Shown here: in pieces, positions 59,143 through 64,000 of the stretch
How the letters are laid out: each line of letters opens with the position of its first letter
Position numbering within the stretch: position 1 is the first letter of the stretch
Source of the DNA: Amphiscolops sp. MND2022
Taxonomy: Eukaryota
DNA length: 64,000 nt
NCBI GenBank assembly: GCA_964187785.1
Contig: OZ076409.1
Coordinates: 8,930,001 to 8,994,000 of the forward strand
Direction: 5' to 3'
Program-made: the position numbers and the translations under genes
The notes under the pieces: generated by a model
What the model saw: only the letters and a program-made list of their open reading frames with translations
Told to the model about the DNA's origin: nothing
Database searches by the model: none

Positions 59143-61937
59143 TCACAAAACCGTTCAATAATGAAAATAAGTTTGGCAACAAAGATATGCTGTGATTATA
59201 ATAGCTGTTGCGAAATTGAAAATGTTGCATACACACACAAGATCCATCCAAAATTTGCAGTACTATTTAAAGTTTAGTTGATAAAACGGCCCGAACGATC
59301 GCAGGCTGGACAGAGATGTAAACAGGAGGAAACGAAGAGCCGGGCTTCATCAAATTTCACCAAGCTCGTGATCCAAGGGTGTTAGGAACGGGGGAGTTGT
59401 ATCTGTATGGTAGACATTCCAGCTATGGAGAACAATTTTTTTCCAAAAATTCAACGATAGCATATGGGAGAGAAAACATATGAGACGGTATACAAAAAAA
59501 ACTCAATATAACGTTCCCTTAAGTTCCGTTGCGTAATAATGACTTCTTGTGCTTTTCATCAGTTGAACATTTAGTTTTTTGGTTTTAAATTGTAAAAACT
59601 CCAAAAGTTTACTCGACAAAAAAGTTATCTGCAAATAACAAAGAAAATCTCAAATTAGTTTTCAAACAGCAGCAGTCCCTACTAGGTAGACGTGCAGGAT
59701 TTTAAACACAAACATCATAATGCTGTAGTTCTATTTAAATTTTTACTCGCCGCCACTCTCGTTTATGCGAACTTCCCATTACCCGCTGGGTGTGTTTGAC
59801 CAAAAATATCTGAGGCCTCCATTAAGATCCATTAACATCCATTACATGGTTTATTTTGACTTCCGACCTCAGAAAACCTCAGAATTATAGGCTTTTTAGA
59901 CAGTGCGTTTACAACAAAAGAGCCCAATCGTTACAATCACTCGTTTTTTTCTTTAAGACAAACTCGAATGCGACCAATTTTTTGTTCAGTGTCTTCAACT
60001 GAAGGAACACCTCGGAAACGAATCTAACTTATAGCAAAAGGTCCCCTTTTCATTTTCAAATTTTAAATGTAACCTTCAACGCCGGACGACACTAAAGGAC
60101 ACCTTCAACTTTTTTGAAGTCCCCCCTCGTAATGTCCGTAATATCAGAATTTTTGCCCTTATATCCCCGGAGGGAGCTGATGGATATTCGGGATAAAAAC
60201 TTGATGATAAGCCACAAGTTGTTTGAGAAATCATTCAATTTCCCTGAAGAAAGTTCAATTACGCATTTCAAAAAGTACTCTCCGAAAAAAGAGCAAGAAT
60301 TTGAACAGCTTGCAGATATGATATTAAAAAGTGGCTTTCTTTAGCGCACCAATGCCTCAAGCTGTGGAATGGATGCAATCAAAATTAAAAGGTACGAGTT
60401 GTACCACTAAAGAACCTCAATTAAGAAATATAGAATCAGTTTTACATTTGCAAAAGAATGCAAAAACTATTTTGGTTAAACTTTTGGCAGAGGAAGGACC
60501 TGGTTCTATCTATCAGCTTTGCTACAGAGTTCCAGCGATAGGTATAAAACAATTTTGAACAGAATCTTTAACTGATAAAGTTCAATATAAAGCAAGAAAT
60601 TTAGTAACCATGTTTGCTGTAGATATGAAAAGAGCTGTAAAGACAACCCTATAAGATATTACGTTCATATACCAGTCGCAACTTGGTAGACAATACGCAA
60701 TTTCATCGGGTAAAATGTCCATTTTTTTGTCCCACCTAACTCCCGTTCAACCAAGGTCTAGTAAAAAGGGGGTCTATATCCCACCAACTCTGGTTTCGTA
60801 CACACACAGGCGTCTCTGATTGGTTGGCGAGAAAGCTGTGTGTATGTCCCACCATTGCGCGTTGAACACTTCGGCTTTTTGATTTGTCGACGACAACCGA
60901 CATTGTATGTCCCACAAAAAGTTGGGTTTTTGAACAGATACGAACCCGACCTCGGATTGTGAAGTAGCTTTTATCGGTGTTAGTCCCACCAAGAAATAAT
61001 TTATTTGGGAGTGACCTCGTTTTTTCCCGGTTCCGTTATTCTAAAATCAAGATCTTATCATGAATCTATCATTTAGTTGGGTCATTTTAGTGGAAAGTAC
61101 ATGAATGTAGTGGAAAATCAAGTACCAGGTATCGCGGGAATGTAGTAGAATTACATTCTAAAATAGAAGTGGAAATATCTGTAACCTGTAAGATCAACAA
61201 CAGACGTTTTTATTAGTGTCCAGTTTATACAGGCTCTACGTGTGGTGGTCACGAGGGAAGCAGAAAGCGAAATCCCGATTCGGGCCAAGCAAGAAAAAAA
61301 TCAAAAGCCCCAAAACCCCTGTTAGAAGCGTTAGAGACATTTTTCCAAAAACAAAACAACAAATTGGCGTTTTTACCAATGCATTGTAAAAGCAATGCAA
61401 TATAAACAACTGGCGTGGACATAAATTTGGTTCCAATGGCTCAGTGGTTAGACCACTAGAATTTTACGTTCGCGCAGCTTCACACGTGTTCAAGTCCGCG
61501 ACAAAGCATAATTTAATTACACCATTTGTGGAGGGGGGTATATAAGGAAGCTAGTATATTATTTTTACGAACAAGTTACTCATTGCTTGAAAGGATTTGT
61601 CATCCTTTCCTCCGCTTTCGAGCAGTATTGGCAATAGTAACGTGAGCTTTACCAGTACACACTTTCGGGAGGGGAAAGATTGTGTGTTACATAAACTGGA
61701 GCTCTATAGTGAAATAACAAGTGGGAGGTAAAATCCTGTGTAGTTAATTTGCGAGCGGTGGACGTCTGTAGCACATGGTGTTGGTCGACGGAAGCCGCGA
61801 TAAGCTTTTGCGTTGAGCTTTTCCGTTAAGCTTTTGCGTTAAGCCTTTGCGTTAAGCTTTCGCGATAAGATAAGTTGCCTAATACCTCAACGGGAAACGA
61901 TTTTCTCGACACCCTTTTAACCCTTCCATCTTAATAA

Positions 61938-62670
61938 ATGTATGAAACTCCGTCTCTTCATAAGTTTGGTTATTCTACTGAACAGATAAAACTGAGGGAA
62001 GGTCAGGAGCTAAAAGATTTGATAAAAAGTCAAGAAAATTTAGCCCAAATAACCCATTCCAAATTAAAAGAAGATTTGTAACGCGATTTTGAAAATGACA
62101 AATTGAAATTAATAGAAGAAAAAATGTTAGACCAAATACTAGACCCACAAGAAGTTCAAAATGTTTCATTAAACACAAAGTTAATCAATGATATTTATTC
62201 CCAGTTTTCAGAACTTTCAAAAACCATAAGTAAGTTAGAACAATTTATGAAAAAATCTTTCGCCCAACAAAAACCGCTTTAGTAAATGAGGTACTAAATT
62301 TAATACACAACAATAGTTTTGAAATAATAACAGTCCGTAACTTAAAATTTATGTCAACTCCGGGTCAAGCTGGAATGATTTTAATTGAAGATGAAGTAAA
62401 CAATATTCTTAATAGCATAGATCGAAATAAAATCACTGTAACTAACAACATAATTCAACTGCTTTATGACAAAGGTTTGTTTGATTCTTTTCCTAATAAA
62501 GATCAAGCTTTTGCAAATTGTCTAACCTTCAGTGAAACATACTTATTGGAAAAGTTGGAAAAACAATACCTACTTCAGATGGTGAATATTATCTGTCTGA
62601 TCTAGAATATTCTACCAGAGAAAGTATTTTGAAGTCATTGAAAAAAGATTCCTATAAAGACTTTTTGATA
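61938..62670 (+). pseudogene. Disrupted ORF of unknown function in the putative Polinton
   Basis: ATAAATG start, MYETPSLHKFGYSTEQIKLREG...; one in-frame TAA (~62079) and a frameshift near 62275 join it to track ORF 62351-62605. Confidence 0.5.
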
Positions 62671-62729
62671 TGAAACACAGAATGAAAATAACACCAACGG
62701 AAATAAATTTCATTTTATATGATTAATAA

Positions 62730-63321
62730 ATGGAACAAAAACTCTATCCTTCAATGACCACCTCCGCACCATATGATGTAGAATCATTGATAAATAAGCA
62801 ATTAGCAAAAGTATCTAGTTTCAATATTTCTATTCAAAATATTAGTCTAATGATGAAATATTACGAATTGGAAGAAAAGAAATATAAGAAAAAATACATC
62901 AAATACAAGCCAATAAATAACATAACTAACTCGACAGATGGTCTCATAATAATAGAAACAACTTCAGCATCAGTTACACTAAGTATTACTGTTGTGGGCA
63001 TTATAGTTGTTCCAATCACTGCAGGAGTTGGTTGTGCAACTGGTATTCTTGTTAAAATTTTTTCCGGTTATTTAAAGAAAAAGGAGCAAAATAATAAACT
63101 TGAGTACGCTATTATTCAGAAGACACTTGATGACTTTAGACAATTATTTACCACTAGCCTAAAAGTTATTCACATAGATGAAAAAAATATCACCAATTTG
63201 TGAACAAGTATGAAAATTATCGCGTAGCTTCACAATCACAAAATATAACAAACAAGCGTGATACAGCAACACCGACAGCAACGCTCGCTACAACACTGAC
63301 ATCGCATATGCCATCCCATAA
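62730..63321 (+). CDS. Polinton/adintovirus 'GasderminX'-like membrane-active protein (frameshift near the 3' end)
   Basis: KLYPSMTTSAP N-terminus, KKYKKKY basic helix, hydrophobic hairpin SASVTLSITVVGIIVVPITAGVGCATGILV, then a KKK..TLDDF..SLK..IDEK helix. The ORF as read ends at 63203; adding 1 nt in the A-run at ~63181 extends it (YHQFVNKYENY...) to TAA at ~63321. Confidence 0.6.
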
Positions 63322-63461
63322 GCCATCGCATAATCCATACAATTTTTTATAATTAATTTATTCAATTTTAAATAAAAAGTGAAATAAAAATTAACACTCA
63401 TTATTTGAAAATACACTATTGAAAAATATACTGCTATTAAATTCGTAAATTTATTATAAAA

Positions 63462-64000
63462 ATGGAGAACTGTAGTATTTGTTATTCTGATTATAAAAAG
63501 GCTTTCAAGTCTGATCATCTAAAATCAGTAAAACATTTAGAAAAATTAAATCATTATTATTGTAAAAAATGTAATAAATTTATGCCCCTATCAGACAAGT
63601 CAAATCATTTAAGTTCAGACCAACACAAGAACAAAACCAAACAGCAACACATTTGGTGTGAAGATTGCGGTAAATACATTGGTGATAAAACAAGACATTT
63701 CCAAAGTGAAATTCACAAAGCCCACGCAGCATCGTACACAGCCTCACAATTACTTATACACTTTGATGTGGAAACTTTACCGGGTGTGGAAGTAATTGTG
63801 AATGAAAAAACATACATTAAGCTGAGAGTAAAACCAAGTGACGCAGCTTCGCCAAATCTTGAACATCACATAAATGAACTACTAGATAAAAAATACTTTC
63901 CCCGATATAAATATCAATTGAGTTATTTAGCTAAGTTTTCAAAAATAGTTAATGGAGAAGAAAATGTATTTCACAAATTGGTTAAATCAGATTTTAATTA
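63462..64000 (+). CDS. Open ORF (>=179 aa, runs off the window) with three N-terminal C2H2-type zinc fingers; candidate N-terminus of Polinton protein-primed DNA polymerase B
   Basis: MENCSICYSDYKKAFKSDHLKSVKH...YCKKCNKFMPLSDKSNHLSSDQH...WCEDCGKYIGDKTRHFQSEIH; no stop to 64000; absent from the ORF track because it is unterminated. Confidence 0.7.
   Translation, partial: MENCSICYSDYKKAFKSDHLKSVKHLEKLNHYYCKKCNKFMPLSDKSNHLSSDQHKNKTKQQHIWCEDCGKYIGDKTRHFQSEIHKAHAASYTASQLLIHFDVETLPGVEVIVNEKTYIKLRVKPSDAASPNLEHHINELLDKKYFPRYKYQLSYLAKFSKIVNGEENVFHKLVKSDFN

Follow-up and report, generated by a model that had tools for sequence, protein, structure and literature searches.

A probable decayed Polinton/Maverick copy at the end of a 64-kb stretch of the Amphiscolops sp. 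MND2022 genome

We analyzed 64,000 nucleotides (nt) of the genome of Amphiscolops sp. MND2022 (assembly GCA_964187785.1, contig OZ076409.1, forward-strand positions 8,930,001 to 8,994,000). This whole stretch is the window; its positions are numbered 1–64000 throughout, and the DNA that we read stops at 64000. Judging from sequence comparisons, positions 61938–64000 are very probably the 5' part, now decayed, of a single integrated copy of a high-copy Polinton/Maverick (a polintovirus with a polymerase of the Beta-adintovirus type).

Three coding units at the end of the window

Three co-directional, intron-free coding units begin at 61938 (open reading frame 1, or ORF1), 62730 (ORF2), and 63462 (ORF3). 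The start contexts are TAAATG, TAAATG, and TAAAAATG, respectively, which agrees with the TAAA(AA)TG starts given in a preliminary description of this DNA, although TAAATG is common by itself (37 occurrences across the window). Only 3 nt separate the stop of ORF1 from the start of ORF2. Between ORF2 and ORF3 lies an AT-rich spacer of about 110 nt (63353..63461, + strand) with 13% guanine plus cytosine (GC), two AATAAA words, and TATAAAAATG at the start of ORF3; it is likely to comprise the 3' end of ORF2 and the promoter of the next gene. The GC content is 28.5% in ORF1, 32.3% in ORF2, and 30.8% in ORF3, versus 38.9% at positions 1–60000. The preliminary description reported compact, intronless, AT-rich, co-directional open reading frames, and the three units, their tight spacing, and their low GC content all hold. 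Two of the frames do not: just two long frames are open (62730–63203, 157 amino acids, and 63462 to the end of the window, 179 amino acids), as ORF1 is not an open frame in this copy and the frame of ORF2 ends early. The same description placed a switch from intron-rich host DNA at 60730. The flank is repeat-rich and its intron-richness is not demonstrated; also, the 1.2-kb non-coding stretch before ORF1 is not AT-rich (GC content 41.7%), which puts the compositional switch at about 61940. None of the three frames in the window matches a Pfam family above the cut-off.

By its sequence matches, ORF3 (63462..64000, + strand) is the 5' end of a gene for a protein-primed polymerase B. A search among longer proteins (expectation value, E, at most 0.001) gave 159 relatives from 2,860 candidates, with lengths of up to 1,293 amino acids; identity to ORF3 is 51–77% for the best 120 of the 159. 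The 179 residues in the window are 67% identical to the N-terminus of a natural protein of 1,280 amino acids (P0165), which has motifs for an OTU protease, an exonuclease, an endonuclease VII, and a polymerase. Fifteen of the best 120 relatives are full-length polymerases. We searched the 15 relatives of at least 1,150 amino acids with motif patterns, which are labeled according to established knowledge of family B polymerases: Exo II was found in all 15; Pol A, Pol B, Pol C, and endonuclease VII were found in 14 each; Exo III in 13; and Exo I in 11. The Cys and His motifs of the OTU protease are both present in 94 of the 108 relatives of sufficient length (this is at the level of motifs, and for this copy the region lies beyond the window). 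Among seven long relatives that we scanned, there was no Pfam match to OTU, and Endonuclease_7 was matched in seven of seven. The OTU motifs fit the TP-vOTU-EXO-PALM layout that is given for Polinton polymerases in 10.1101/2024.03.18.585575, which supports a Polinton polymerase. Endonuclease insertions are also known in Polinton-type polymerases, according to that source and PMC10748475, and PMC5803895 mentions a weak endonuclease VII annotation in such a polymerase. Three zinc-finger motifs open ORF3 in the window, and the same motifs open 91 of the best 120 relatives.

In another copy, a natural fusion (P0163) runs from the N-terminus of the polymerase into the reverse transcriptase of a Pao retrotransposon; this is a retrotransposon inserted in the polymerase gene.

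ORF2 (62730..63352, + strand) is a gene for a long helical hairpin protein of about 200–240 amino acids, the tip of which is hydrophobic, uncharged, and rich in Gly. Of 423 candidates, 358 are relatives, and among the best 120 of these, 105 are 190–240 amino acids long. The open frame in the window stops short of this because of one frame change, which we mapped by tblastn to near 63182–63185. A profile search reached 503 clusters at the 50% level. The structure model of a natural relative (mean predicted local distance difference test score, pLDDT, of 76) has two long helices with a low-confidence hydrophobic tip between them, followed by a third helix. The tip comprises 32 uncharged residues (29–39 in the five family members that we examined), with a hydropathy peak of 2.29. 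Fold searches of the Protein Data Bank (PDB) returned generic helical bundles, none at E ≤ 0.001 (best Z score 10.7, root-mean-square deviation 3.5, 134 aligned residues). Matches to SLATT were below the cut-offs (E = 0.011 in NCBIfam; E = 0.004–0.005 in Pfam, for two of 48 members). No gasdermin or SLATT structure was among the top fold matches, and the fact that no gasdermin or colicin pore domain appears in these lists is no evidence against such domains. No pX domain was found in ORF2, and an Atlas search gave a best score of 0.82, which is a lead only.

ORF1 (61938..62726, + strand) is a pseudogene of a conserved orphan protein of 263–278 amino acids. Its frame is open for just 47 codons from 61938 and reaches an in-frame stop at 62079–62081. 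When the first piece was read with an X at the stop, we found 187 relatives of more than 200 amino acids among 634 candidates; the best 120 of these are 73–83% identical to ORF1, and 89 of those 120 are 255–280 amino acids long. Four collinear tblastn pieces in the window together span the full length of an intact relative, so this is one pseudogene with the stop and three frame changes (near 62249–62273, 62551–62563, and 62661–62667). The gene is thus real by its intact relatives, as the preliminary description had it, although not open here. Intact copies are 92.8% identical to each other at the median. ORF1 has no predicted membrane segment, family match, Atlas match, or structure assignment. 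We ruled out ORF1 as a PZ-type or penton-type gene (profile probabilities of 0.1% and 0.6%).

Copies of the family and viral relatives

The three genes belong, as far as their matches tell, to multi-copy families that travel together. To count shared contigs, we used the best 120 of the 187 ORF1, 358 ORF2, and 159 polymerase matches and took identical lengths of the longest contig as a fingerprint; these are counts of contigs and not of genomes. ORF1 and ORF2 share 23 contigs, ORF1 and the polymerase share 10, ORF2 and the polymerase share nine, and all three are on one, over 313 distinct contigs with a median length of 249 kb. In one natural read-through protein (P0347), the end of ORF1 is joined to the start of ORF2.

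This copy is most likely a fossil: by its reading frames it would give no full ORF1 or ORF2 product, while younger copies in the family have open genes. The first piece of ORF1 departs from the family at 13 of 92 conserved columns (stop included), which exceeds all 89 intact relatives (median 1). The second piece departs at eight of 78 conserved columns, and only one intact relative equals or exceeds that. Together with the frame change in ORF2, there are five reading-frame lesions in 1.4 kb, which makes this copy older than much of the family. These lesions also bear out the earlier view of the element as partly decayed.

Copies of all three genes differ by short in-frame insertions in which alanine is 7–11 times as frequent as in the core (relatives P0001–P0360; the copies share descent, so the counts are not independent). 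This suggests repeated expansion of GC-containing micro-repeats in AT-rich genes, and such micro-repeats are present in the window at 63300–63338 and 61797–61869. Enrichment of GNA mini-hairpins in the element was not seen (about 1 per kb, versus 1.17 per kb in the flank).

To find viral relatives of the polymerase, we used motif patterns. A strict Pol A pattern found nothing, and two looser patterns (5 and 20 stretches) gave 24 loci on 21 distinct IMG/VR contigs. P0165 aligns with all 24, at 28–35% identity over about 1,070–1,260 columns for the near-complete ones. For example, P0165 and the polymerase of locus L006 are 32% identical over 1,084 columns (E = 5e-138), and the L006 polymerase clears the Pfam cut-off for DNA_pol_B_2 (E = 3e-16). 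The preliminary description regarded no core gene as proven within the window; by way of P0165 and L006, the 5' end of a polymerase B gene is now identified, and the window contains its first 179 codons.

Because the loci were chosen by polymerase motifs, their neighboring genes are an independent check. A gene of the rve integrase cluster is present in 15 of the 21 contigs, one of the A32 ATPase cluster in 15, and one of the double-jelly-roll cluster in six. (Clusters were labeled from a Pfam scan of 85 open reading frames in 12 of the 21 loci, and the viral loci are partial.) No maturation protease family was matched among those 85 frames. An ORF2 profile matches genes in three of the 21 contigs (L003, L005, and L007), with E values of 3e-7 to 1.2e-6 among 1,038 open reading frames. 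In a profile–profile comparison, ORF2 matches the L005/L007 gene cluster with a probability of 89.8% (E = 1.8e-6, 132 columns), and the other 25 of the 26 clusters reach 1.6% at most. In L005, the ORF2 relative is between ATPase-side genes and the capsid gene, and the contig also has an integrase and a polymerase. A weak match between ORF1 and L007 (E = 0.054) was not upheld. Separately, a gene on another Polinton-type contig (L013:8163–9038) matches the Tet/JBP dioxygenase family under the cut-off (E = 2.6e-7).

We also built a quick tree, drawn with a midpoint root, from six of the 15 full-length close relatives and 14 viral proteins. The six close relatives group together as a clade, and the branch that leads to it has 2.07 changes per column; the clade has no resolved sister among the 14 viral proteins. 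We think it somewhat probable that the family is an undescribed long-branch lineage. Look-ups of clusters for 20 of the proteins gave no informative name (one was "hypothetical protein"), and our literature searches found no published description tied to this family, which does not show that the family is undescribed.

Kind of element

Three of the features that bear on membership were found, at the level of sequence: the polymerase, the OTU motifs in its relatives, and dispersed, compact, intron-free copies. With the start of the polymerase, the relatives of ORF2 inside Polinton contigs, and the decay, the preliminary description of one arm of a partly decayed Polinton/adintovirus-like element is supported. 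The element is of an ordinary kind (a Polinton/Maverick, well known in animal genomes), and the family, which is abundant, stands rather far from its relatives.

Among known systems, one close comparison is to the Beta-type Polintons/Mavericks (the Beta adintoviruses, or group 1 Polinton polymerases; PMC8502044), with which the family has in common a polymerase of about 1,200–1,290 amino acids with an OTU domain. Compact intron-free genes are another likeness, as is the state of the genomic copies, which are mostly degraded in the vertebrate Polintons described in PMC8097293. The adintovirus accessory genes named in PMC8502044 include the membrane-active GasderminX, Cupiennin, and SLATT, and SLATT genes are on the adintovirus maps of its supplement. 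ORF2 resembles these, by description, in being small and helical and in having a hydrophobic hairpin; all of its sequence matches to such families are below the cut-offs. Further background is given in PMC11131425 and 10.64898/2026.06.19.733378.

The family also differs from the Beta type. Its polymerase begins with three zinc-finger motifs, of which the first 70 residues of the 14 viral relatives show no clear sign (three of the nine viral relatives that we scanned have weak Rho_N matches instead); ORF1 is an orphan; ORF2 is directly before the polymerase; and the branch is long. L005 (IMGVR_UViG_3300027549_000010) and L007 (IMGVR_UViG_3300040794_000071) have a homologous polymerase (32–34% identity over about 1,090 columns) and no homolog of ORF1, and their homolog of ORF2 (15–19% identity) is flanked on one side by a pX-like gene and on the other by the genes that lead up to the one for the major capsid protein.

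Several observations weigh against identifying this DNA as a Polinton. No integrase, ATPase, protease, or capsid gene, terminal repeat, or target duplication of the element or its close family was seen in the DNA that was read. With ORF1, ORF2, the polymerase alignment, and a distant ORF2 relative as queries, no locus of the close family was confirmed in viral contigs, metagenome contigs, or prokaryote genomes. The window's own 179 residues of ORF3 have no direct match to any viral locus, so the link from the window to the viruses runs through the full-length relatives. ORF1 has no counterpart in the viral loci (best 2.4%). The genes share contigs, which is not the same as being adjacent, and the decay of the ORF2 and ORF3 pieces is nothing out of the ordinary (19 of 105 relatives depart as much as the ORF2 piece, and 15 of 120 as much as the ORF3 piece). 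Searches of PDB sequences with the polymerase gave nothing useful, and its structure model has a mean pLDDT of 31. DNA_pol_B_2 (PF03175) was matched by none of the seven long close relatives and was missed by eight of the nine full viral relatives that we scanned. According to PMC8502044, a poor match to PF03175 (under 30% identical to that type) is a feature of the Beta class, and the zero of seven is consistent with Beta; this comparison is with the published description of the class. Finally, the same type of polymerase is found beside a Sputnik-type virophage major capsid gene in L022 (IMGVR_UViG_3300005581_001124) and in fragments within a 733-kb contig (L004), so the polymerase type alone does not fix the type of element.

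These points leave room for other explanations. The one that survives best, although it is unlikely, is a capsid-less or non-autonomous derivative, which would have kept the polymerase and accessory genes, lost the virion module or the integrase, and spread as a transposon or with a helper. This would fit the lack of any capsid or integrase gene of the close family in the sequences that we examined, but the window stops at 64000, and most of the viral relatives have the integrase and the ATPase. The long polymerase branch and the gene order point the same way, as the ORF2 relative in L005 and L007 is among virion genes instead of directly before the polymerase; gene order varies among Polintons, according to PMC8097293. 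The 15 full-length polymerases and the high identity of ORF1 copies (93%) are as expected for an autonomous family.

Another explanation is an endogenized relative from outside of the Polintons proper (a virophage-like hybrid, a Polinton-like virus, or a fragment of some larger DNA virus) that shares this type of polymerase. Besides the capsid gene in L022, this would be favored by the best structural neighbors of ORF2 among viral models, which are uncharacterized invertebrate iridovirus proteins; these fold matches (E = 1.7e-3 and 1.9e-2) miss the threshold of 0.001. The sequence relatives of ORF2 lie on contigs that carry capsid, integrase, and ATPase genes of the Polinton type, and hundreds of copies dispersed over long contigs would be expected from an element that is driven by an integrase, so we consider this explanation very improbable. 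Host genes, exons from a family of host genes, or frames open by chance in AT-rich DNA would account for the lack of Pfam matches in the window and are scarcely credible given the hundreds of intron-free relatives of each gene, the collinear breaks, the full polymerase in relatives, and the near absence of matches between the 522 fetched proteins and the upstream 61.9 kb (one 20-residue repeat); the tblastn breaks, the L006 alignment, and the identity to P0165 already largely refute them.

If this element works as known Polintons do, then an intact copy would be a linear DNA of 15–20 kb with terminal inverted repeats. The polymerase would use its own N-terminal domain to prime replication, and the OTU protease would then cut this domain off; an rve integrase would insert copies with a 6-bp target duplication; and the ATPase and jelly-roll capsid proteins could package the genome. 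An integrase and a capsid gene may still follow downstream in this copy; the counts for the 21 contigs come from distant viral relatives and are indirect. From its predicted structure, we think that ORF2 is rather likely to be an accessory or virion protein that inserts into a membrane for entry or exit. There is about an even chance that the three zinc fingers are nucleic-acid-binding, with the genome ends as the probable target. It is possible, though doubtful, that ORF1 is a lineage-specific soluble protein of the virion, with DNA packing or scaffolding as the most likely role.

Animal genomes commonly contain Polintons, so one more decayed copy matters little by itself. The interest of the family is modest and comes from its abundance, its many young copies with open genes, its long branch, its orphan gene, and its polymerase tipped with zinc fingers. 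Particles are stated not to have been observed for animal Polintons in PMC8097293 and 10.64898/2026.06.19.733378, and a host with many young copies would be well suited to a search for expression and particles. Annotators should mask the region as a mobile element and not treat it as host genes.

The upstream stretch and the flank

The non-coding stretch at 60730–61937 is somewhat more likely than not to be a terminal or regulatory region of the element. The preliminary description had noted about 1.2 kb of motif-rich non-coding DNA here, and we did find motifs. A TCCCAC-containing motif is present in five copies (60730..60991, unstranded) with a spacing of 49–74 nt, and these are candidate subterminal repeats. 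The TCCCAC hexamer itself occurs five times in 60730–60989, and none of 2,000 dinucleotide shuffles of that 271-nt stretch gave any hexamer five times; the stretch was picked post hoc, and when the window is cut into 236 equal tiles, nine of them likewise have a hexamer at least five times. A 13-bp tandem array of 5.6 copies (61797..61869, unstranded) is about 70 nt ahead of ORF1, with a folding z score of -1.1, which is not significant.

Also in this stretch, a pattern scan identified a tRNA-like pair of an A-box and a B-box (61437..61497, + strand), a candidate polymerase III promoter or a relic of a tRNA-derived short interspersed element (SINE). The A-box pattern had six matches in the window, two of which, including this one, have a B-box. 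ARAGORN and Rfam made no call at 61437–61497, and its folding z score is +0.65; overall, a structured RNA in the non-coding stretch is unsupported by ARAGORN, Rfam, and the folding scores. It is a long shot that the family is a deep, undescribed, recently amplifying polintovirus lineage with its own polymerase III tRNA-like RNA gene at this site, conserved across copies, a zinc-finger-tipped polymerase, and an orphan core gene. Such an RNA would be an analog of the adenovirus VA RNA. The other A-box and B-box pair (about 59075–59134, - strand) is probably the head of a tRNA-derived SINE, and it also has no ARAGORN or Rfam call.

Terminal inverted repeats of Polintons are given in PMC8097293, for vertebrates, as ending in (AG)3 or (AGT)2. 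Neither AGAGAG nor AGTAGT occurs in 60000–61937, and decay or a different motif could account for this. An inverted copy of 60730–61900, which the preliminary description had proposed as a check, is not inside the window, nor is one of 59000–64000; this is what one would expect with the other end of the element downstream.

Directly before the proposed boundary at 60730 is a broken co-directional frame (60132–60651, + strand; 35% GC; about 170 codons over two frames). It has no match in Pfam or NCBIfam, to the fetched proteins, or to the viral loci, and it could be a relic of another mobile element or part of the same one.

Further upstream, 41139–55742 is a 7.3-kb head-to-tail tandem duplication with 97.5% identity between the copies. 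It has internal repeats of about 860 bp and tRNA-like matches at 46175–46255 and 53452–53549; there was no Pfam match among the open reading frames that we scanned, and it is probably a retroelement array or an assembly duplication. The only labeled host exon in the window encodes WD40 repeats (27640–28056, E = 1e-9) and is over 30 kb from the element. It is one of the exons of a WD40-repeat host gene that are spread over 26800–34030 (- strand), which we take to be STRAP-like.

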